A stretch of DNA of 36,016 nt from Candidatus Andersenbacteria bacterium RIFCSPHIGHO2_02_FULL_45_11 (GTDB lineage: Bacteria; Patescibacteriota; Andersenbacteria; UBA10190), in NCBI GenBank assembly GCA_001817055.1, contig MHHP01000021.1:1-36016 (forward strand). Direction: 5' to 3'. Under the pieces are notes generated by a model. That model was not told where the DNA came from. It ran no database searches and was given only the letters and a program-made list of their open reading frames with translations. Positions 8,699-34,789 of the stretch are shown here, in pieces (positions within the stretch are counted from its first letter, which is position 1; the number at the start of each line of letters is the position of its first letter). The position numbers and the translations under genes are program-made.

Positions 8699-8845
8699 CG
8701 TCGCGCTCCCTTCTCCTGTTTTGGGAGAAGGTTAGCTTTGCCTTTGTGCAAAGCGCGGATGAGGGGAAGTGAATAGCAGCTAACGCCCCTCACCCCTGCC
8801 TGCCGGCAGGCAGGCTAGCCCTCTCCCAGAACGGGAGAGGGGAAC
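8699..8845 (+). repeat. Composite GC-rich hairpin repeat, family B, copy 1 (fills the convergent HD/comFC spacer)
   Basis: Four modules are present: hairpin ccttctcc/ggagaagg (8709-8731); an extra hairpin gctttgc/gcaaagc (8735-8754); gagggg...cccctc; and a perfect 20-bp palindrome cctgcctgccggcaggcagg (8795-8814), followed by hairpin ccctctccc/gggagaggg (8819-8841). It is colinear with 23487-23596 and with the reverse complement of 14259-14378. Confidence 0.85.
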
Positions 8846-12793: not shown

Positions 12794-12889
12794 AGATTTC
12801 TCCCCCTCGTATGAGGGGGAGCGAGAGGGGGTGCGTTGCTTGCTACGTACTGACCCCACCTCGCCTCCCCTCATATGAGGGGAGGAAAT
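12794..12889 (+). repeat. GC-rich double-hairpin repeat, family A, copy 1 (intergenic, upstream of recX)
   Basis: tttctccccctcgtatgagggggagcgagagggggtgcg...ctacgt.ctgaccccacctcgcctcccctcatatgaggggaggaaat. It has the same architecture as the 95-bp copies at 24625-24719 and 25241-25335, and its 3' half is nearly identical to theirs. Confidence 0.85.
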
Positions 12890-12908: not shown

Positions 12909-13343
12909 ATGCAAAAATCATCGGAAAAATCTGCGCGTCATATTGCGATTGATATTTTATCCCGGCGGGATAATAGCGTGCGAGAAGTGCGGCAGAAGCT
13001 GAAGAAGAAGGGGATTGCCGAAGAAGATATTGCTGAAACAGTAGATTGGCTGCAAGAAAAAAAGCTATTAGACGATAGCGTCTTTGCTCAGAAAAAAGCT
13101 GAAAGCATATATCGAACCAAGCTGGTAGGCCCTTCATATATAAGGATGAAATTAAAATCAGCAGGAATTGAAGACTCTACAATAGAGATAGTATTGGACG
13201 ATCTGGCTGATAATCAGCAGTGGCAAGACCGTGCCAGGCAGGCAATAGCGCAATGGAAAAAAGCGCATCCTAAACACGCAGAAGACAAAACCCGCCACAT
13301 GCGGTTTTTAGCATCAAGAGGATTTGATCTATATCTCTCGTAA
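12909..13343 (+). CDS. recX: Recombination regulator RecX
   Basis: 144 aa of three-helix repeats: A..IL.RR..S..E...KL..KGI.EE.I...V..L....LLDD..FA......, with C-terminal ..FL.SRGF. TACAAT (12894-12899) lies 9 nt before the ATG. Confidence 0.8.
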   Translation: MQKSSEKSARHIAIDILSRRDNSVREVRQKLKKKGIAEEDIAETVDWLQEKKLLDDSVFAQKKAESIYRTKLVGPSYIRMKLKSAGIEDSTIEIVLDDLADNQQWQDRARQAIAQWKKAHPKHAEDKTRHMRFLASRGFDLYLS

Positions 13344-14243
13344 TCGCTTGATTCGTTCTTCTAGCGGCGGATGAGTTGAAAGTAAGCCAGAAAAGGAACT
13401 CCCACCCCCTCTAACTCCCCCTCGGGCAGGGGGAGAACCAAACGGGTTTGCAATAAACAGGTGTGCCGTTGCATTGCTCGCAGTTTCTAGTGGGCTGCTA
13501 TGAGCGATTTTTTCTAATGCCCGCGCTAATCCTTCCGGGTAGCGTGTTAATAGTGCACCGGAAGAATCTGCCAAGTATTCCCGTTGGCGAGAAATCGCAA
13601 GTTGGATAATTTGCGCAATGATGGGGGATATAAGGAGGAGAACAATGCTGATAATTGCAATAAGTGCATTACTTTGATTGTTATCTCGACTTCTACGCCC
13701 ACCTCCAAAGAACATTGACCTGCCCACCAAGTCAGACAAAATCACAATGAACCCAACAAAGATTGCAACGAGTGTAGAAAATCGGATGTCATAATTTTTT
13801 ACATGAGATAGTTCGTGCGCAAGTACGCCTTCAAGCTCAGATTGCTCTAGTGCATGTAATAATCCTGTAGTTACTGCAATAGATGCATGCTCCGGGTCGC
13901 GCCCTGTTGCAAATGCGTTCATGGCAGGGGATTGGATAATATATATCTTTGGTGTTGGTACGCCTGCTGTAATTGCCAAGTTTTCAATAATGCGCGTAAG
14001 TTCCGGCGCTTCTTCTTTGGTAACCGCCTGTGCACGATTTGCAGCTAGTGCAATTTTATCTCCCGTATAGTAACCGATGAGCGAAGAAGGGATAGCGAGT
14101 ATAGCAGCGAGTATAGCGAGCGAAAAGTCTTGGTATCGAGAATACGAATACAGTGCGACAACACCGATTACGAATACAAGAACAATTACAACGAGAAAAA
14201 TTGATTTTCGCTTATTCGAAGAAATTTGTGAGTAGATGGTCAT
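13329..14243 (-). CDS. htpX: Zinc metalloprotease HtpX (M48 family)
   Basis: HELSHVKNYD (HExxH), four TM segments and a C-terminal LSTHPPLEERI motif. A repeat-derived insert (SPPARGGVRGGGS) sits just before STHPP. Confidence 0.9.
   Translation of the reverse strand: MTIYSQISSNKRKSIFLVVIVLVFVIGVVALYSYSRYQDFSLAILAAILAIPSSLIGYYTGDKIALAANRAQAVTKEEAPELTRIIENLAITAGVPTPKIYIIQSPAMNAFATGRDPEHASIAVTTGLLHALEQSELEGVLAHELSHVKNYDIRFSTLVAIFVGFIVILSDLVGRSMFFGGGRRSRDNNQSNALIAIISIVLLLISPIIAQIIQLAISRQREYLADSSGALLTRYPEGLARALEKIAHSSPLETASNATAHLFIANPFGSPPARGGVRGGGSSFSGLLSTHPPLEERIKRLREI
13399..13436 (-). repeat. GC-rich hairpin repeat, family C, copy inside htpX
   Basis: The reverse complement tctccccctgcccgagggggagTtAgagggggtgggag differs from the pheT copies at 2 positions in the core. 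It is in frame and is translated as SPPARGGVRGGG. Confidence 0.85.
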
Positions 14244-14258
14244 TGTTTATATAGTTAT

Positions 14259-14378
14259 CCCCTCGCCCCGGATGGGGAGAGGGTTAGCCTGCCTGCCGGC
14301 AGGGGTGAGGGGCCGTTAAGTCGACTAATTTCCCCTCATCCTCGCCTTCTCCCCGTCAGGGGAGAAGGGAGCGGCTAC
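14259..14378 (-). repeat. Composite GC-rich hairpin repeat, family B, copy 2 (lemA-htpX spacer, inverted orientation)
   Basis: The reverse complement reads gctcccttctcccctgacggggagaaggcgaggatgagggga...cccctcacccctgccggcaggcaggctaaccctctccccatccggggcgagggg, colinear with the copies at 8699 and 23487. Confidence 0.85.
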
Positions 14379-22558: not shown

Positions 22559-22593
22559 CTAACCCCGTCTGCAGGCGGGGTTAGTTTGTTTTT
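22559..22593 (+). terminator. Rho-independent terminator after the major pilin gene
   Basis: ctaaccccgtc-tgca-ggcggggttag is followed by tttgttttt. Confidence 0.75.
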
Positions 22594-22613: not shown

Positions 22614-23462
22614 ATGCTTGAAACTGTATTTACTATATTCATTCTCTTCGCTCTCGGCGCTGCAATCGGCAGTTTTTTGCATGTAGTTGCAGAGCGATAT
22701 ATGGACGCTCTAACCTCCCCTAACCCCTCCTTCGTAAGGAGGGGAATGCGACGCGTTCTCTCCCCCTTACGAAGGGGGAGCTGGAGGGGGTTAGTCTTAG
22801 GGAGGTCGTACTGCCCACATTGCAAGAAGCAATTAACTGCCCGCGAACTCGTACCCATTTTTTCGTATATATTTCAAAAAGGACGATGCAGAGGATGTGG
22901 TGTGCGCATTCCAATGCACTACGCAGTACTGGAGGTGCTATCAGGAATTTTGTGTGTCGCATTCATTGCGCCTGCATTCGTAGCAGGTCAGCTATTAACT
23001 ATTCCCATATTGCTCTACATAGCAGCATGTATATTGATTATATTAATTCACATAGATGCGCGCAGTATGATGCTGCCTGATGTGTTTATTTTGATACTTG
23101 GAATTATTGCGCTCGTAATCGCCAGTATTTCCGGGCTATCTGGTGATAGTATGGCGTTTGGCGCGCTTGTGGGTGCGGGGGTGATCTATGCAATATGGCT
23201 CGCAACTGCAGGGCAGGGTATAGGATTTGGGGATGTAAAGCTGATGATCCCGCTCGGCATCTTATTCGGGTTTCAGGGCGTGGTAACGTTGCTTTTTATT
23301 GCCTTTCTAGTTGGAGGGCTTGTAGGGGTAGTGTTACTTGCAACTAACAGCGCAACACGGAAAACCGCAATCCCATTTGGGCCATTTTTAGCTGGCGCTG
23401 CCCTTGTGCTTATGGTATTTCCATCTATTTCTGATCGGTTTTTTGTGCTTTTAGGGGTATGA
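22614..23462 (+). CDS. pilD: Prepilin peptidase PilD (A24 family) carrying a repeat-derived insert of about 30 aa
   Basis: GSFLHVV, CPHC...RCRGC zinc motif, GFGDVKLM and PFGPFL active-site Asp motifs. TGCTATGAT (22599-22607) lies 6 nt before the ATG. Confidence 0.9.
   Translation: MLETVFTIFILFALGAAIGSFLHVVAERYMDALTSPNPSFVRRGMRRVLSPLRRGSWRGLVLGRSYCPHCKKQLTARELVPIFSYIFQKGRCRGCGVRIPMHYAVLEVLSGILCVAFIAPAFVAGQLLTIPILLYIAACILIILIHIDARSMMLPDVFILILGIIALVIASISGLSGDSMAFGALVGAGVIYAIWLATAGQGIGFGDVKLMIPLGILFGFQGVVTLLFIAFLVGGLVGVVLLATNSATRKTAIPFGPFLAGAALVLMVFPSISDRFFVLLGV
22709..22806 (+). repeat. MITE-like GC-rich element (family C variant) in frame inside pilD
   Basis: Two 9-bp-stem hairpins: cccctcctt-cgt-aaggagggg (22724-22744) and ctccccctt-acg-aagggggag (22760-22780). 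Imperfect inverted termini: acctcccctaa..cccctcc on the left, ggagggggtt..ttagggaggt on the right. The 3' half tctccccctt.cgaagggggagctggagggggt matches the pheT/htpX core. Confidence 0.8.
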
Positions 23463-23469
23463 TTAGGGT

Positions 23470-24168
23470 ATGAAGTTCGTGACATTCGTTCGCGCTCCCT
23501 TCTCCCCAGACGGGGAGAAGGCGAGGATGAGGGGGTATCGTCGCGCCCATTTTCCCCTCACCCCAACCCTCTCCCCGTCCGGGGCGAGGGGGGCTACGAT
23601 GGGCTTTTCCCTCGTCGAATCTCTCGTTATCATTTCCATTATCAGTATATTGGCTTCGTTGTCTTTGGTTGCCCTTCCGGCTGCGCGTGCGCACCAGCAG
23701 CTTATTTCGGATACTGAACTGATACAGTCGTTATTGCTAGATACAAAAGAGCGTGCATTAAATCAGGTACGCCCAGAAGGGTGCCTACGAGATGATTCAA
23801 ATCCAGAATCGGCAGATCGCGCTGCCTGTTCAGATGTAGGGATTATATTTGAAGGCGGTAAAGTTATGCAGTTCGCTAATATTGCAGGAGGAACAGAAGA
23901 AGATCCGGACTATGTCTATAGTGGTGACACAGAGCATCCTATTGTAGAGCACCAACTTCTTACGTCTGTAGTTGAGGAGGAAGAGGGTGGCGTAAGGCAA
24001 ATCCTGTTTCGGTCTGTTCCGCCATCCGTTGAGACGTATAAAGATGGGGCAGTTATGGAGCCGAAAGATACTGCACATATAACGCTCAAAGCGAGTAATG
24101 GAGAATTACGCAAGCTCGCGGTGAGTCAGTTTGGTACACTAGATATTGTTAATGATTATGCAAAATAA
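23470..24168 (+). CDS. Minor (pseudo)pilin with a prepilin N-terminal motif
   Basis: G|FSLVESLVIISIISILASL. The long form starts at ATG 23470, giving a 44-aa leader encoded almost wholly by repeat B3. An alternative ATG at 23599 gives MG|FSLVE, with a GAGGGGGG element from the repeat upstream. Confidence 0.7.
   Translation: MKFVTFVRAPFSPDGEKARMRGYRRAHFPLTPTLSPSGARGATMGFSLVESLVIISIISILASLSLVALPAARAHQQLISDTELIQSLLLDTKERALNQVRPEGCLRDDSNPESADRAACSDVGIIFEGGKVMQFANIAGGTEEDPDYVYSGDTEHPIVEHQLLTSVVEEEEGGVRQILFRSVPPSVETYKDGAVMEPKDTAHITLKASNGELRKLAVSQFGTLDIVNDYAK
23487..23596 (+). repeat. Composite GC-rich hairpin repeat, family B, copy 3 (5' end of a minor pilin gene)
   Basis: cgcgctcccttctccccagacggggagaaggcgaggatgaggggg...cccctcaccccaaccctctccccgtccggggcgagggg. 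It lacks the 20-bp palindrome module present in copies 1 and 2. Confidence 0.85.
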
Positions 24169-24601
24169 AGGGTTTACACTTGTAGAAGTATTAATCGGAC
24201 TGTCTATTGCCACAGCTGCTGCGGTATCTGTTGCATATACAATCGCAAATACGAATAAAGTTGCCGATGCGGGAAAGCAAACATTTATTGCAACTAACTT
24301 AGCGCATGAAGGATTGGAATTAACGCGGGCATTGCGTGATGATATATGGTTTACGGAAGGTGTGCAGGAGGATGCTGATTGGTCCGATGAAATAGTGGTG
24401 AGTGAAGATATTAATAAAACTATAATTTTTGATCAAGACCCAACAGAATTCATTCGTACGGTTATGATAACTCAAGATGATGACCATGATGAGTATATTA
24501 ACGTGACTTCGAAAGTGGACTGGACAAGTGCTCGGGGAGAGGGGAAAAACGTTGAAATAAAAGAAAAGCTTTATAATTGGTATGTAACGCCAACACCATG
24601 A
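24158..24601 (+). CDS. Minor pilin (prepilin-type N-terminal cleavage/methylation domain)
   Basis: MQNKG|FTLVEVLIGLSIA. It overlaps the upstream gene's stop. An alternative ATG lies at 24152. Confidence 0.75.
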   Translation: MQNKGFTLVEVLIGLSIATAAAVSVAYTIANTNKVADAGKQTFIATNLAHEGLELTRALRDDIWFTEGVQEDADWSDEIVVSEDINKTIIFDQDPTEFIRTVMITQDDDHDEYINVTSKVDWTSARGEGKNVEIKEKLYNWYVTPTP

Positions 24602-25230
24602 AAACGAAATCAAAGATTAACGTCGCGTATTTCTCCCCCTTGGATAAGGGGGAGCGCGAGGGGGTAGTAACGCTACGTCCGACCCCACCTCGCCTCCCCT
24701 CATATGAGGGGAGGAAATCTGCTGCGTTCACGCTGATCGAATTATTAATCGCCATGGGCATATTTGCCGTATTTATTACGATTATTACGGGGGTGTTTAC
24801 GAACTTTATCCAAGTTCAACGCCACGCCATTGCGCAAGGGCAATTAATTTCAGACATGCGGTCTGCAATGGAGGCGTTTATAAAAGAAGCGCGAACAGGC
24901 TACGGGTCTACGTATGCAGCTGAGGGGGACGCAGTTGTATTTGTGAATCAAAATAATGATTGTATTACGTTCCGAGTTATTGACGGTCAATTCAAGCGTG
25001 CAGATGCGGGGGAGCAAGATGTGTGTAGCGCTGAGGATTCCGATAGTAATCGTTTTAGCCCTATCACGAGTAAGGCGACAGAAATTATTGGCCTTGAGTT
25101 TAGCATTCCCGTTGACCGTGTTATCACAATCAAGCTCACGGCTACATCTAAAAAAGACGGCATTCCGCCAATTAGCATTCAAAATTCTATAACATCTCGC
25201 CAAATGGAACCATATGCGCAGAACCAATAA
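24598..25230 (+). CDS. Minor pilin with the family A repeat in its leader
   Basis: ATGA start/stop overlap with the upstream gene. The sequence reads MKTKSKINVA-[YFSPLDKGEREGVVTLRPTPPRLPSYEGRKS]-AAFTLIELLIAMGIF. No in-frame ATG, GTG or TTG lies between the repeat and the FTLIELL motif. Confidence 0.7.
   Translation: MKTKSKINVAYFSPLDKGEREGVVTLRPTPPRLPSYEGRKSAAFTLIELLIAMGIFAVFITIITGVFTNFIQVQRHAIAQGQLISDMRSAMEAFIKEARTGYGSTYAAEGDAVVFVNQNNDCITFRVIDGQFKRADAGEQDVCSAEDSDSNRFSPITSKATEIIGLEFSIPVDRVITIKLTATSKKDGIPPISIQNSITSRQMEPYAQNQ
24625..24719 (+). repeat. GC-rich double-hairpin repeat, family A, copy 2 (in frame, minor pilin leader)
   Basis: 95 bp, identical to 25241-25335. Hairpins ctccccctt-ggat-aagggggag and cctcccctca-ta-tgaggggagg. 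Confidence 0.9.
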
Positions 25231-25687
25231 AAAATATACAGCGTATTTCTCCCCCTTGGATAAGGGGGAGCGCGAGGGGGTAGTAACGCTACGTCCGACC
25301 CCACCTCGCCTCCCCTCATATGAGGGGAGGAAATCGGCTCAGCGTGGCTCAGTCGTCATTACTATTGTTTTATTTATGATTATCCTCATGACGTCTTCTG
25401 CCGTAGTGTTATCTGGCACACTCTCTCGCCACATTCGTGCATCACAAGACTATTTATCGTCAGAAAAAGCTTTTGCAGGGGCAAATACCGGCATGGAAGA
25501 AATACGATACAAGGTAAAGCAGGGTGATTATGAGCCTATTAAAGATGCTGAAATGGCATACGATGGCCAAGTAGTTACATATAACGCATCAGCAGAGAAC
25601 GATGGCGCCTGCATTATTTCATCTGGAACATTTAAAAATCTTGTACGTCGCGTGCAGTTCGGGGGAGAAGGGTGTAATCAACAATGA
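25214..25687 (+). CDS. PilX-like minor pilin / pilus assembly protein with the family A repeat in its N-terminus
   Basis: MRRTNKKYTA-[the same 31-aa repeat peptide]-AQRGSVVITIVLFMIILMTSSAVV, a QRGS + TM helix as in PilX N-terminal domains. It overlaps the upstream gene by 17 nt and ligA by 4 nt (ATGA). Confidence 0.6.
   Translation: MRRTNKKYTAYFSPLDKGEREGVVTLRPTPPRLPSYEGRKSAQRGSVVITIVLFMIILMTSSAVVLSGTLSRHIRASQDYLSSEKAFAGANTGMEEIRYKVKQGDYEPIKDAEMAYDGQVVTYNASAENDGACIISSGTFKNLVRRVQFGGEGCNQQ
25241..25335 (+). repeat. GC-rich double-hairpin repeat, family A, copy 3 (in frame)
   Basis: Identical over 95 bp to 24625-24719, and read in the same frame. Confidence 0.9.
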
Positions 25688-30932: not shown

Positions 30933-31004
30933 TAGCGGGGGCTGGGATTGCACCAGCGATCTCCTGGTTATGAGCCAGGCGAGATACTACTTCTCCACCC
31001 CGCG
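30933..31004 (-). tRNA. tRNA-Met (CAT), initiator-like
   Basis: Cloverleaf CGCGGGG-TG-GAGA-AGTAGTA-TCTC-G-CCTGG-CTCATAA-CCAGG-AGATC-GCTGG-TGCAATC-CCAGC-CCCCGCT-A. It has a C1:U72 mismatch, A11:U24 and the same 5' CGCGGGG as E. coli tRNA-fMet. Atypical features: the D-loop lacks GG, the T-loop is TGCAATC, only two G:C pairs close the anticodon stem, and CCA is not encoded. Confidence 0.7.
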
Positions 31005-31016
31005 TTATGTGAAAGG

Positions 31017-31025
31017 AGCATAGCA
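31017..31025 (-). promoter_or_regulatory. Extended -10 element (TGCTATGCT) 12 nt upstream of the initiator-like tRNA
   Basis: The reverse complement of agcatagca is TGnTATGCT. It would drive a tRNA-gpmI transcript. Confidence 0.4.
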
Positions 31026-31179
31026 GAATATATGCTCTTGCGCAATAAAGTAGAAGAGGAAGAATGGAAGTACGACCACTGGAGGAACTCGAAGACTGAT
31101 GCACACAGATCTGTCGAAGTTAGACCACTAGTGAGTCCTTTGGAGCATCCGGCCTCATTTTTATGAGAAACCGGCTTAA

Positions 31180-31209
31180 CAGCGCCGACCTCGGCGCTGT
31201 TTTATTTTT
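31180..31209 (+). terminator. Rho-independent terminator (plus strand) with no assigned upstream gene
   Basis: cagcgccga-cc-tcggcgctg is followed by ttttattttt. Confidence 0.7.
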
Positions 31210-31237
31210 GCTCATCCTATGTATAATGCCCTGTATT

Positions 31238-31311
31238 GGTGACGTAGCTCAGTCGGTTAGAGCGTGGGACTCATAAGCCCGAGGTCGGAGGTTCGATTCC
31301 TCCCGTCACCA
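31238..31311 (+). tRNA. tRNA with CAT anticodon, elongator type (Met; lysidine-modified Ile2 not excluded)
   Basis: GGTGACG-TA-GCTC-AGTCGGTTA-GAGC-G-TGGGA-CTCATAA-GCCCG-AGGTC-GGAGG-TTCGATT-CCTCC-CGTCACC-A. G1:C72 is paired. TATAAT (31222-31227) lies 10 nt upstream. Confidence 0.85.
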
Positions 31312-31357
31312 CAAATTTCTTTACAAACACATAGATTTCGGTATCTTATGTAGTACT

Positions 31358-31434
31358 GGGCTTGAAGTGTAACGGTTTTGCATGTCTCCCTGTCACGGAG
31401 AAGGCAGCGGGTTCGACTCCCGTCAGGCCCGCCA
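31358..31434 (+). tRNA. tRNA-Asp (GTC), CCA encoded
   Basis: GGGCTTG...TCTCC-CTGTCAC-GGAGA...GCGGG-TTCGACT-CCCGT-CAGGCCC-G-CCA. Confidence 0.9.
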
Positions 31435-31866: not shown

Positions 31867-32932
31867 AGAGCTTGCAGAAGTTTCGGATGCATCTGCCTTA
31901 GAGGCATGGCGCGTTTTATATATCGGGCGAAAGGGAAAACTCCCTGAGCTGCTTCGTGGTGTTAAGGATTTAGGCGATGAAGAAAAGAGAGTGATTGGTA
32001 AAGCGGCGAATATATTAAAGAGAACACTTGAAGAAGCATATTCTGTAAAACAAGAGTCGTTTATCGCATCCGCACCTAATAAGCTAATGAAAGCCCTGCC
32101 TGCCGGCAGGCAGGTACAAGCTAACGAAGCTAGCGTAGGCCATTTGCATCCGATCACACTTACGATTGAACGTGTGCAAAATATTTTTGCGGCTATGGGC
32201 TTCATTATCGCCGATGGCCCGGAAGTGGAAGAGGCAAGATATAACTTTGATGCACTAAATATTCCGTCAGATCATCCTGCTCGTGGAGAAGGGGATACGT
32301 TTATGATTGATCCTAAGAGTGTGAGTGGGGAACAGGATGTAGTGCTGCGTACGCAAACATCGCCGATGCAGATCCGATCCGTGGAAACGATGCGCCTCAC
32401 CCCGCCATTTTATGTAATTGCTCCAGGCCGAGTATATCTAAGGGAAAAAGTAGATGCAACACACGAATCAACGTTTTATCAATTTGAGGGCTTAGGAATA
32501 GGGGAGGATATAACAATTGCAGATTTTAAGGGGGTTATTGCTGCATTCTTTTCTACATTCTTTCAAAAAGACGTAACCGTGCGTCTACGTCCTTCATACT
32601 TTCCGTTTGTCGAGCCTGGATTTGAAGTTGATATGAGTTGCGTTTTTTGTGCTCAAAAAGGGTGCAGGGTTTGTAAGTACACAGGTTGGATTGAAGTAAT
32701 GGGTGCTGGCATGGTACATCCGAACGTACTCAAAAATATGAATATTGATCCAACGAAGTATCAGGGCTTCGCCTTCGGTGGCGCTATTGATCGGCTTACA
32801 ATGATCCGACATGGTATTAACGATATTAGGATGTTTTGGAGTGGAGATATTAGGTTTTTACGACAGTTCTCGAACTGTCATTCCGGCCCCCGAGCCGGAA
32901 TCCACGTGGATGCCGGATCAAGTCCGGCATGA
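31817..32932 (+). CDS. pheS: Phenylalanine--tRNA ligase alpha subunit, with a repeat-derived C-terminal extension
   Basis: HPARGEGDTF, RTQTSPMQIR, FRPSYFPFVEPG and GAGMVHPNVL class II motifs. The conserved end ..GDIRFLRQF is followed by 20 extra codons (SNCHSGPRAGIHVDAGSSPA) and a stop from a palindromic element. An alternative ATG lies at 31826. Confidence 0.9.
   Translation: MTDMEQQLEDLQKQANKELAEVSDASALEAWRVLYIGRKGKLPELLRGVKDLGDEEKRVIGKAANILKRTLEEAYSVKQESFIASAPNKLMKALPAGRQVQANEASVGHLHPITLTIERVQNIFAAMGFIIADGPEVEEARYNFDALNIPSDHPARGEGDTFMIDPKSVSGEQDVVLRTQTSPMQIRSVETMRLTPPFYVIAPGRVYLREKVDATHESTFYQFEGLGIGEDITIADFKGVIAAFFSTFFQKDVTVRLRPSYFPFVEPGFEVDMSCVFCAQKGCRVCKYTGWIEVMGAGMVHPNVLKNMNIDPTKYQGFAFGGAIDRLTMIRHGINDIRMFWSGDIRFLRQFSNCHSGPRAGIHVDAGSSPA
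32095..32114. repeat. Perfect 20-bp palindrome cctgcctgccggcaggcagg inside pheS
   Basis: Identical to 8795-8814 (a module of repeat B1). A 16-bp version lies at 14288-14303. Here it is translated as (A)LPAGRQV. Confidence 0.85.
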
Positions 32933-32944: not shown

Positions 32945-34789
32945 ATGAAATTCTCGTACCAAAAAATTAAAAAAATAATTCCAAGCCTCACACTATCTCC
33001 AAAAGAGTTGGCAGAGCTTCTTACCATGCATGCGTTTGAAACTGTTGTTGATCGCGAGTACGTAATAGATCCAAGCATGACGGTTGTAAAAATTCTCAAG
33101 CTCGATCCTCATCCAAACGCAGACCGTCTTCGTCTTGCAACAGTAACCGACGGAACGAACGAAATCCGAGTTGTATGTGGTGCGCTAAACATTGAAGTGG
33201 GGCAGATTGTCCCGTACGCACCTCCGGGAGCACGTGTGTATGATGAGCACGGTGAATTATTTACCTTGAAAGAAGCAGTGATTCGAGGAGAGACAAGCCC
33301 CGGAATGTTAAATTCTGTCCGAGAACTAGGGATATCAGACGATCATGGCGGAATCCTGATTCTTCCCGAAGATACCCTCATTGGGTCAAAGCTTGCTCTG
33401 CATATTCCAAGCGATACGATATTTGACGCTGATGTGCTACCTGATCGCGCGCACGATGTGCAATCAGAAGAAGATATTGCGCACGAAATCGCAGCACTTC
33501 TTGGGCTTGCAAAATCATCTGACCGAAAGATGGGTACGCACACAATTGCTTTTAATCCAGATAGTCCAAGTAAAATTGCGGGGGTAAACATTTCTCATGA
33601 AGAAGTGCGGGATATTTTGGAACGATTAGGGTTTATAATCTCTCCCCCTGCCCGAGGGGGAGCTGGAGGGGGTGGGAGTGGCGACGTGTGGTCTGTGACC
33701 GTCCCGTCTGCGCGCCCTGATGTGCTGGGCGAGCATAATTTGGTTGATGAAGTTGTTCGCGTGCACGGACTTGATGCAATTCCACCGTCTACAATGGATT
33801 TCTCAAAGCCATTACCCGTATCACCATCAGTATATTGGATTGGACTCATTCGTCGCACACTTGCAGAATCAGGATTTACAGAAACGTATAGCTATTCGTT
33901 TGAAGATGAACGATTTGCGAAATTGGTGAACACAGAAATTCATCCGCACGTTGAGCTTTCAAACCCTATGGCACCGGAGCTGAAGAATCTCAGGTACTCG
34001 ATGCTGCCAGGGCTAATTTCTGCAATGGTGAAAAGTCGAGATGACATTCATCGGACAAAGAAAAATCAGGAGAGGGCCCTGTTTGAAATAGGGCGTGTAT
34101 ATCATCGGGGCGATGAGGGTGTAGTGCCTGGTATTATTGAGCGGCCTGTTATCGCAGGCATCGCGGTAGGGGATGAGGTAACACTACAAAATATCGTTGA
34201 TCGCATTCGAGAATTGTTTCAGATAGAAGCGCTCACTGTTATTCCTGCAGAAAAGCCATTTGCGAAATACAGTCTTTTGAAATACGCGGATGAATTTTTC
34301 GGTATTGGATATATATTCAGCAATGAACTCCTGAAAAAGATGAAATACAGAATGCCGGTCATTGCGTTTGAAATAAGTTTCAACGCGCTCATGAAGCATG
34401 CGCCAGATGTGGAAATTCCTGTGCGGACACTGGACGAGATTCGAAATACACTAGAAACTCCCGCGCAATTCGTCGAACTGCCAAAATATCCAAGCGTATT
34501 TCGAGATATATCAATGCTCGTACGTCCGGAAGTAACCGTCGAGCAAGTCCAAGAAATTATTGAGCGTATTGGAAAAGGGTTAGTCGTAGACGTGGATCTC
34601 TTTGATGAATTTACGCCTCTCCCCCTGCCCGAGGGGGAGCTGGAGGGGGTGGGAGTGGCGCGAAAATCTCTGGCGTTTCATATTGAATATAGATCTTCAG
34701 AAAAAACCCTTACCGATACAGAAATAGCAGAATTGCACTCAAAAATCGAACACGCCCTCAAGAAAGAATGTAACGCCGAAATACGGTAA
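32945..34789 (+). CDS. pheT: Phenylalanine--tRNA ligase beta subunit (short form, B3/B4 editing domain missing, two repeat inserts)
   Basis: tRNA-binding (EMAP-like) domain DPHPNADRLRL..VVCGA, B5 domain (VTVPSARPDV..LVDEVVRVHGLD), B6/7, and a C-terminal FDX-ACB domain (KYPSVFRDIS...KSLAFHIEY). It is 614 aa, against about 795 aa in E. coli. Confidence 0.9.
   Translation: MKFSYQKIKKIIPSLTLSPKELAELLTMHAFETVVDREYVIDPSMTVVKILKLDPHPNADRLRLATVTDGTNEIRVVCGALNIEVGQIVPYAPPGARVYDEHGELFTLKEAVIRGETSPGMLNSVRELGISDDHGGILILPEDTLIGSKLALHIPSDTIFDADVLPDRAHDVQSEEDIAHEIAALLGLAKSSDRKMGTHTIAFNPDSPSKIAGVNISHEEVRDILERLGFIISPPARGGAGGGGSGDVWSVTVPSARPDVLGEHNLVDEVVRVHGLDAIPPSTMDFSKPLPVSPSVYWIGLIRRTLAESGFTETYSYSFEDERFAKLVNTEIHPHVELSNPMAPELKNLRYSMLPGLISAMVKSRDDIHRTKKNQERALFEIGRVYHRGDEGVVPGIIERPVIAGIAVGDEVTLQNIVDRIRELFQIEALTVIPAEKPFAKYSLLKYADEFFGIGYIFSNELLKKMKYRMPVIAFEISFNALMKHAPDVEIPVRTLDEIRNTLETPAQFVELPKYPSVFRDISMLVRPEVTVEQVQEIIERIGKGLVVDVDLFDEFTPLPLPEGELEGVGVARKSLAFHIEYRSSEKTLTDTEIAELHSKIEHALKKECNAEIR
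33641..33683 (+). repeat. GC-rich hairpin repeat, family C, copy 1 in pheT
   Basis: tctccccctgcccgagggggagctggagggggtgggagtggcg, with hairpin ctccccct-gccc-gagggggag. It is translated as SPPARGGAGGGGSG. Confidence 0.9.
34618..34660 (+). repeat. GC-rich hairpin repeat, family C, copy 2 in pheT
   Basis: 43 bp identical to 33641-33683, but read in a different frame as LPLPEGELEGVGVA. Confidence 0.9.

Follow-up and report, generated by a model that had tools for sequence, protein, structure and literature searches.

Palindromic repeats read in frame in the leaders of two adjacent minor pilin genes of Candidatus Andersenbacteria: a probable selfish element

Why should two adjacent minor pilin genes carry one and the same palindromic block, in frame, in their N-terminal leaders, and how would the genes bear it? 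We addressed this question in a stretch of 36,016 nucleotides (hereafter the window; contig MHHP01000021.1) from Candidatus Andersenbacteria bacterium RIFCSPHIGHO2_02_FULL_45_11, an uncultured groundwater member of the candidate phyla radiation (CPR/Patescibacteria). The window is a housekeeping stretch with a type IV pilus operon comprising PilM/N/O, two ATPases, PilC, the major pilin, PilD and four minor prepilin-like genes, two of which contain the 99-nt blocks. Our analyses suggested that these blocks are probably copies of a selfish, non-autonomous palindromic repeat, one that is translated and that the host tolerates, similar in kind to the doublets of repetitive extragenic palindromes (REPs) known as REPINs and to the Rickettsia palindromic elements (RPEs). 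The features concerned are as follows (an arrow marks the predicted processing site of a prepilin).

24598 to 25230, plus strand: gene 1, a minor type IV prepilin with PF07963 (N_methyl) at residues 39-63; its ATG overlaps the upstream stop codon (ATGA)
24625 to 24723, plus strand: copy 1, in the gene-1 leader between MKTKSKINV and A↓FTLIELL; core ATTTC...GAAAT at 24629-24718
25214 to 25687, plus strand: gene 2, a PilX-like minor pilin (QRG↓SVVITIV...)
25241 to 25339, plus strand: copy 2, in the gene-2 leader between MRRTNKKYT and QRG↓SVVITIV; 98/99 identical to copy 1
12796 to 12889, plus strand: intergenic copy from the same subfamily, its 94 nt not divisible by three, between a minus-strand open reading frame (ORF) and recX; flanks GTAG...CTAC

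The two pilin copies and how they are read

Direct comparison confirmed the starting point of an earlier sequence-only reading of this DNA, namely that 24625-24719 and 25241-25335 are identical over 95 nt and share a reading frame, in which both copies translate as (A)YFSPLDKGEREGVVTLRPTPPRLPSYEGRKS(A) / AYFSPLDKGEREGVVTLRPTPPRLPSYEGRKSA. The match extends further, to 24723 and 25339, with one T/G mismatch (98/99), each block measuring 99 nt or 33 codons and starting 27 nt past its ATG (24598 and 25214, respectively). A third copy, said to be intergenic upstream of recX, was found there as well (core 12796-12889), 20 nt 5' of that gene; its hairpins and ends are the same as in the pilin copies, one loop differs, there is a 4-nt spacer indel, and the ungapped identity is 62%. 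Across six aligned copies, three of them from relatives, mean column identity was 80% with hairpins and termini invariant. Perfect GC-rich hairpins number 18 in the window and 0-1 in shuffled sequence, and given this excess a chance origin of the repeats is excluded.

An assembly collapse or duplication had been named as the finding that would overturn the observation. Both copies are present at 99.9% identity in contigs of independent assemblies from NCBI, JGI and ENA (two from the last; at least four in total), and an identical 210-aa gene-1 protein occurs in three NCBI metagenome-assembled genomes (MAGs; Candidatus Andersenbacteria bacterium RIFCSPHIGHO2_12_FULL_45_11 and sisters, GCA_001817035.1 among them). 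One short contig (L004) does end inside copy 2, as assemblers commonly do at repeats, but the flanks are unique coding sequence and the same structure recurs in all these assemblies and in the three MAGs; the arrangement is therefore not an assembly artefact, an origin to which we attach next to no probability.

The element is an imperfect palindrome with a 90-nt core (ATTTCTCCCC...GGGGAGGAAAT) built from two inverted hairpin-plus-tail units. The doublet core reads ATTTCTCCCCC-loop-GGGGGAG-CGN-GAGGGGGT ... ACCCCACC-TCG-CCTCCCC-loop-GGGGAGGAAAT, with a G-rich tail after each GC hairpin. Specifically, the left half consists of a 9-bp GC hairpin (CTCCCCCTT-GGAT-AAGGGGGAG), CGC and the tail GAGGGGGT, and the right half mirrors the left minus one C (ACCCCACC-TCG-CCTCCCCTCA-TA-TGAGGGGAGG). 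Two inverted 22-nt hairpins, with singlets and doublets both present, correspond to the REPIN type of doublet. The terminal inverted repeats ATTTCTCCCC / GGGGAGGAAAT are invariant in every aligned copy, the ninth stem pair alternates between T-A and C-G among copies in a compensatory manner (with one T·G intermediate), and in many copies a hairpin some 20 nt long (CCTGCCTGYCCGGCAGGCAGG among others) is nested at a single fixed internal position. The conserved unpaired motif is GAGGGGGT; GTAG/CTAC or (A)GTCGCG occurs in a subset of flanks and does not abut the stems. Copy 1 is predicted to fold as RNA into one long hairpin (-54.6 kcal/mol, z -4.6) and as DNA into separate hairpins (-29.8 kcal/mol, z -5.3). 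Three of the six reading frames through the element are open, and the encoded peptides, which in the pilin leaders include EGVVTLRPTPPR and LPSYEGR, are hydrophilic (grand average of hydropathy about -0.8) and carry a net positive charge, with Pro, Gly, Ser, Arg and Glu abundant.

With the insert, the gene-1 leader reaches 43 aa, compared with about 6 usually, and has a net charge of +5; the enlarged leaders of the two genes span 43-45 aa and +5 to +7. Gene 1 otherwise shows the marks of a class III signal peptide, with F44, T45 and E48 invariant in 23 orthologs and the A24 peptidase PilD encoded 1.1 kb upstream. Its atypical features are the leader length of 43 aa and the Ala at -1, and the latter is also found in an insert-free paralog of a relative (MNNKA↓FTLVEVL), so it is not specific to the insert. 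The dN/dS of the mature parts was 0.09-0.21 overall (gene 1, 0.09-0.21; gene 2, 0.14-0.18), which indicates that the host pilin genes are under purifying selection. In addition, the position of the upstream ATGs relative to the preceding gene (ATGA overlap or 8-nt spacing) is conserved in all orthologous loci. The claim that the repeat must be translated was supported by the conserved upstream ATGs, the exact 33-codon open inserts and the low dN/dS.

The companion claim, that no in-frame ATG, GTG or TTG follows either repeat, needed correction in its wording: in-frame ATGs occur at about 24751 in gene 1 and at 25376 in gene 2. Both lie only inside the hydrophobic helix, and its substance held, there being no usable start between repeat and processing site. 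A start behind the insert could be argued from the NCBI MAG annotation, which begins gene 2, gene 3 (the third prepilin-like gene, 23470-24168) and PilD after their inserts, and from gene 3 itself, the only one with an alternative in-frame ATG (at 23599) right behind the element and directly before G↓FSLVES, with the Shine-Dalgarno-like GAGGGGGG in front. That the element-bearing genes are dead, or start at a non-canonical codon downstream of the repeat, is nevertheless very improbable: genes 1 and 2 offer no ATG, GTG or TTG between repeat and processing site, a downstream start would remove the F/T/E motif or half of the helix, the inserts are stop-free and of exactly 33 codons, each upstream start is conserved and tied to the gene before it, dN/dS is 0.09-0.21, and in-frame units also occur in the essential PheS and PheT.

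The deposited MAG annotation (L001) gives PilD, gene 3 and gene 2 lengths of 182, 189 and 103 aa instead of 282, 232 and 157; conserved N-terminal parts are lost there because of the repeats, a systematic mis-annotation.

Under the reading of a translated and tolerated repeat, the ribosome would start at the conserved upstream ATG and read through the hairpins, adding 33 hydrophilic, net-positive residues to the cytoplasmic leader, and PilD would cut at (G/A)↓F in gene 1 or G↓S in gene 2, leaving the mature pilins unchanged. The proposal that the insert is silent since the leader is removed fits the comparative data, in which elements occur in the pilin leaders and none in the mature parts across about 10 related loci. 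Cleaved leaders would be among the few insertion-tolerant places in a CPR genome with almost no intergenic space, and this tolerance would account for elements in three of five prepilin-like genes and in most gene-1 orthologs. Prepilin leaders are thus presumably recurrent safe harbours, through their removal by PilD.

Filled and empty sites and the spread of the family

Orthologous operons were retrieved via gene-1 homologs, and the resulting pattern table comprised eight loci:

Gene 1: element-derived leader in 7 of 8 loci, and in 8 of the 22 homologs in the gene-1 alignment
Gene 3: element-derived leader in 2 of 5 loci
Gene 2: element-derived leader in 1 of 7 loci
Major pilin: element-derived leader in none of the loci
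Fourth prepilin: element-derived leader in none of the loci

The closest insert-free relatives (L173, about 92% DNA identity; L005) are empty in both genes and read MKTKQG↓FTLIELL in gene 1 and MN(T)N(S)QG↓SVVITIV / MNTNSQG↓SVVITIV in gene 2. At least four element types occupy the gene-1 leader (an A-type doublet, a B-type doublet, a single B hairpin and a composite). Gene-3 orthologs read MNSG↓FSLIES and MNNTG↓FSLVES; PilD and gene 3 are both empty in L006 and L007, and PilD also in L158 and L161.

The gene-2 element is missing from all seven relatives examined. One of them, the 99.9%-identical strain L175, matches the window at 99.96% upstream and 99.88% downstream and carries the gene-1, gene-3 and PilD inserts, with gene 2 empty. 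The difference between the two strains is confined as follows:

25212 to 25345, plus strand: strain-variable segment of 134 nt (new start codon, 27 nt of new leader, the element and CAGCGTG) replacing 21 nt of L175 (…CCTATGAACACTAACTCCCAAG…)

There are only five downstream single-nucleotide polymorphisms (SNPs) between window and L175, all within about 45 nt of the junction, and the extra 27-nt flank of gene 2 has no second copy among the loci compared. The comparison shows that the gene-2 copy is, to judge by its sequence, very recent, because it matches the gene-1 copy 616 bp away at 98 of 99 positions and is absent from a 99.9%-identical strain. Its simplest history would be local copying from gene 1 over those 616 bp.

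The same junction lends itself to another history, in which the leader cassette of gene 2, and perhaps of gene 1, was imported by homologous recombination or gene conversion from a strain or paralog, so that the identity reflects recombination and no active element. The replacement of 21 nt by 134 nt with a new start codon and leader, the SNPs that cluster by the junction and match other lineages, the lack of a target-site duplication, and a homolog that pairs a different leader with a 100%-identical mature protein would all be expected from such an exchange. The 99-nt block, however, matches the neighbouring gene-1 copy and its extra flank matches no compared sequence, and dozens of dispersed copies at non-homologous sites are not made by recombination alone; we therefore regard import as an improbable account.

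The homolog just mentioned (P0027, SRR3989338) has a mature part 100% identical to that of gene 1 in the window and a different leader (MKMKLGNSVSRRASFSLDGERGTTTG↓F, a single family-B hairpin, Gly at -1), which is identical to that of L160, a 63%-identical species. Either recombination has swapped the leader or the assembly is chimeric.

A metagenome scan with the right-hand hairpin returned 35 matches on related metagenome contigs, corresponding to about 31 unique loci with both ends. The unit is thus not pilin-specific, as had been proposed from the intergenic copy, and belongs to a dispersed family with 31 unique loci of one subfamily, of which 15 span long ORFs. Intragenic copies use both orientations and all three open frames, and never a closed one. 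Their host ORFs are genuine members of GT9, GT1/GT4, Wzy_C, DHFR and M48 families, with domain matches flanking the insert on both sides. Taken together, the loci compared show a family dispersed in the Candidatus Andersenbacteria genome and its relatives, with sites filled or empty by strain or species, and about half of its copies, as read from their ORFs, in conserved genes, stop-free and in multiples of three.

One of these ORFs is a 465-codon heptosyltransferase-like GT9 gene (L140, Ga0209542_10000569) with at least four element-derived segments (the N-terminal ISSPHMRGG...SKGEK, SPPYQGGAGGGV, NFLPSYEGRR...KGEK and YFSPSYEGEPACPAGRREGV...SKGEK) and PF01075 matches on both sides.

This distribution also bears on the idea that the hairpins are kept as mRNA regulators, which 27 nt into the coding region would slow elongation, set half-life or bind a factor and thereby co-tune genes 1 and 2. 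The predicted fold is indeed very stable, the sequence is identical in two adjacent genes of one operon at an equal distance from the ATG (28-30 nt in orthologs), and the gene-1 leader is filled in most relatives. The family, however, also resides in unrelated housekeeping genes as well as between genes, with both orientations and three frames in use, gene-1 orthologs carry unrelated element types or none, and the gene-2 copy is absent in the 99.9%-identical strain. Predicted accessibility of the initiation region did not differ between filled and empty alleles (0.66 vs. 0.70/0.62 and 0.53 vs. 0.58/0.59). The GGAGG thought to be exposed by a hairpin is base-paired, forming part of the right hairpin's stem, and no start codon follows it at working distance. 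The suggestion that the hairpins modulate translation is therefore unsupported, accessibility being unchanged and the use of both orientations inside genes giving no regulatory pointer, and we consider a regulatory role unlikely.

Several points weigh against a mobile, translated repeat. First, no clean insertion junction was found in either pilin gene, and filled alleles differ from empty ones by extra nucleotides (15 in gene 1 and 29 in gene 2); because of these unclean junctions, recombinational import of a leader cassette is as possible as transposition. Second, no consistent direct repeat indicative of a target-site duplication emerged from 30 flank pairs. Third, a phmmer search of about 1.2 Mb of related loci with an IS608 TnpA query, a weak test, gave no transposase match, and the genes of the window are housekeeping genes only, with no transposase. 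Fourth, L175 could be a chimeric assembly, and we infer from sequence both that the element is translated and that a 43-45-aa leader bearing Ala at -1 is cut. Finally, lengths divisible by three were found in 13 of the 15 long-ORF copies versus 5 of 16 intergenic ones (Fisher p = 0.003; binomial p = 3e-5) in a test that is partly circular, since a gene-breaking copy would score as intergenic; even allowing for this, the result shows that genes with copies stay intact. If the family spreads by cutting or copying without target duplication, a HUH/RAYT-type enzyme (RAYT, REP-associated tyrosine transposase) or template switching or recombination may be at work.

As to candidate duplications at the pilin sites, a 4-nt GCGT repeat, 99 nt apart, is present at gene 1 only. 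A 6-bp CAGCGT duplication at gene 2 was rejected, as its 101-nt spacing entails a frameshift.

Related repeats in the window and in other phyla

The count of three copies in the sequence-only reading proved too low, many further copies of the family being present within the window. At least eight in-frame intragenic insertions were recognized, in three prepilin leaders, PilD, PheS, PheT (twice) and an M48 protease. Apart from the pilin copies, the repeats are as follows.

23491 to 23598, plus strand: second repeat family in the leader of gene 3, with hairpins CCTTCTCCCC-AGAC-GGGGAGAAGG and CCCTCTCCCC-GTCC-GGGGCGAGGG
22713 to 22791, plus strand: tail-out doublet in PilD, in frame before the first CxxC, CCCCTCC-TTCGTAA-GGAGGGG and CTCCCCC-TTACGAA-GGGGGAG-CTG-GAGGGGGT; net gain 23 codons
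33640 to 33683, plus strand: single hairpin-plus-tail unit in the B5 domain of PheT, in frame, read as ISPPARGGAGGGGSGD
34617 to 34660, plus strand: identical 44-nt unit in the FDX-ACB domain of PheT, in the other frame, read as PLPLPEGELEGVGVAR
13398 to 13436, minus strand: unit within the M48 peptidase gene (13329-14243, minus strand), in its 3' part; read as GSPPARGGVRGGGS
32095 to 32114, plus strand: stand-alone 20-nt micro-hairpin CCTGCCTGCCGGCAGGCAGG, in frame in PheS (KALPAGRQV)
8750 to 8845, no strand assigned: intergenic composite of family-B hairpins and a micro-hairpin
14260 to 14373, no strand assigned: intergenic composite of family-B hairpins and a micro-hairpin, between the M48 peptidase and LemA genes

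The micro-hairpin CCTGCCTGCCGGCAGGCAGG of PheS is also nested at a fixed position in many copies of the large element and occurs at 8795-8814. A homologous M48 gene in another metagenome has the unit at the same place. The PheT ortholog of L007 (12541-14040) carries a unit at the first site of the window (PPPYQGGVGGG vs. SPPARGGAGGGG) and the LPLPEGELEGVG unit at a third, which the window has empty; orthologous essential genes thus hold the same unit at different sites.

Further palindromes lie near these. At 32876-32932, a TGTC-tagged REP (TGTC-ATTCCGGC-CCCCGA-GCCGGAAT-CCA) is followed by a hairpin (ATGCCGGA-TCAAG-TCCGGCAT), and the two form the 3' end of pheS, lengthening the protein by 19 aa at the C-terminus (NCHSGPRAGIHVDAGSSPA) and providing its stop codon; in L007 the ortholog ends as ...RFLKQFS. 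This REP fits the CGTC-family description of PMC3733652. A 9-bp GC hairpin outside the repeat family (CTAACCCCG-TCTGCAGG-CGGGGTTAG, 22559-22584) separates the major pilin gene from pilD and may act as an attenuator or terminator, governing how much major pilin is made relative to the downstream products. Three tRNA genes (one minus, two plus) occupy 30933-31431, with a 10-bp hairpin (AACAGCGCCG-ACCT-CGGCGCTGTT, 31178-31201) between them.

Species-representative genomes were scanned with the unit pattern CTCCCCC-N6-9-GGGGGAG-NNN-GAGGGGGT, which was found in at least 117 stretches (at least 126 matches) from at least 12 phyla, finished isolate genomes among them. These phyla include Patescibacteria, Pseudomonadota, Bacteroidota, Cyanobacteriota, Planctomycetota, Poribacteria, Omnitrophota, Chloroflexota and Nitrospirota. 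Among the matches listed, YYR is the usual form of the free NNN, several genomes are multi-copy, and the asymmetric doublet turns up again in Lysobacteraceae, Gallionella/Sideroxydans, Gemmatales, Peribacteria, Doudnabacteria and Andersenbacteria. In-frame units were also seen in LigA (Bacteroidales), ClpB (Gracilibacteria) and methyltransferases (Gallionellaceae, Paludibacter). On viral contigs used as a control, the real pattern gave 12 matches versus 2 and 0 for scrambled tails. Rfam searches of the window and 18 cross-phylum loci, at gathering and permissive thresholds, returned only tRNAs and meaningless miRNA-hairpin matches, and the unit is covered by no Rfam family. It is conceivable, if rather doubtful, that the CTCCCCC-loop-GGGGGAG-YYR-GAGGGGGT unit and its doublet form one horizontally spreading pan-bacterial 'coding palindrome', moved by a widely shared enzyme, as opposed to a lineage-specific REP.

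In the cyanobacterial loci (L046, L048, L068, L076, L089, L093, L095, L108, L116, L124), a second hairpin CCCCCCTTGCAAAGGGGGG precedes the unit and a conserved (C)TTGTGTGTACAC(C/G)GTAG follows it, which suggests a larger conserved composite element in cyanobacteria; there was no Rfam match.

Known palindromic elements and the meaning of the insertions

In-frame palindromic repeats inside genes are known, from the accounts given in PMC10969869 and PMC3733652, as Rickettsia palindromic elements (Ogata et al. 2000, 2002). Like RPEs, the elements described here are palindromes of about 100 nt in a reduced genome, with about half of the copies in conserved genes, in frame and stop-free, encoding a hydrophilic peptide that the gene survives; both kinds include tRNA-synthetase and N-terminal insertions. 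In contrast, there is no evident sequence relationship, since the present elements have GC-rich C5/G5 hairpins and reside in a 46% GC genome of a CPR/Patescibacteria host. They are also modular (hairpin-plus-tail units, doublets, nested 20-nt micro-hairpins), and their unit occurs in many phyla, whereas RPE families are Rickettsia-specific. RPE-4/6, of the CGTC type, have AT-start stems by description, which the C5/G5 stems do not resemble, and the likeness is thus one of working and not of membership. CGTC families 1-4 were likewise rejected for the main element, whose stems lack an AT start and which has no CCA tail.

REPs and REPINs are moved by RAYT tyrosine transposases (Bertels & Rainey 2011, PMC3116915; Di Nocera et al. 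2013, PMC3733652), and intragenic GTAG/CGTC REPs, including some in N-termini and tRNA synthetases, occur in Opitutus, Rickettsia, Xanthomonas and others (PMC3733652). The present family shares with them the short imperfect palindrome with a conserved unpaired motif on one side, the occurrence of singletons and of inverted heterodimers that fold into one long hairpin, the many dispersed copies without a target duplication seen, and in-frame intragenic insertion, which is documented for REPs of Opitutus, Rickettsia and others. It departs from them in an intragenic fraction of about 50%, far above typical REPs and at odds with a predominantly extragenic element, in having GTAG or CGTCG motifs in a subset of flanks only, and in that no RAYT was found, by a weak test. 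The text-readable supplements of PMC3733652 contain no GGGGGAG motifs.

The nesting of CCTGCCTGYCCGGCAGGCAGG micro-hairpins at a fixed position in a larger repeat also recalls the small dispersed repeats (SDRs) of cyanobacteria. [quoted passage not shown] Sequences and host differ, and the micro-hairpin here also stands alone, in frame, in pheS. The classical bacterial MITEs comprise Correia/CREE, ERIC and the QMITE of Coxiella (PMC10969869, PMC5896051). Small size, terminal inverted repeats and occasional in-frame fusion with host ORFs are common to both; unlike a classical MITE, a group to which it therefore does not belong, the present element shows no target-site duplication, and the loci compared yielded no parent insertion sequence whose ends match.

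A full-text search for the exact sequence found no paper that carries it, and in the incomplete collection searched nothing relevant links CPR with REPs, MITEs or in-frame repeats. The mode of working is thus that of known in-frame palindromic repeats, and we found no earlier description of the sequence or of the CPR setting. The part that could prove new is the cross-phylum unit; if it is one family, the question becomes which enzyme moves it.

For annotation, the inserts matter because gene callers mis-start insert-bearing genes behind them. The near-isogenic filled and empty alleles of the window and L175 provide a handle on the cost of the hairpins to translation or processing. In addition, cleaved signal-type leaders appear to be insertion-tolerant, a neutral landing pad useful for annotation and engineering. 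More broadly, in-frame palindromic invasion, best known from Rickettsia, is found at high density also in a genome of the CPR/Patescibacteria, another reduced and host-dependent lineage.

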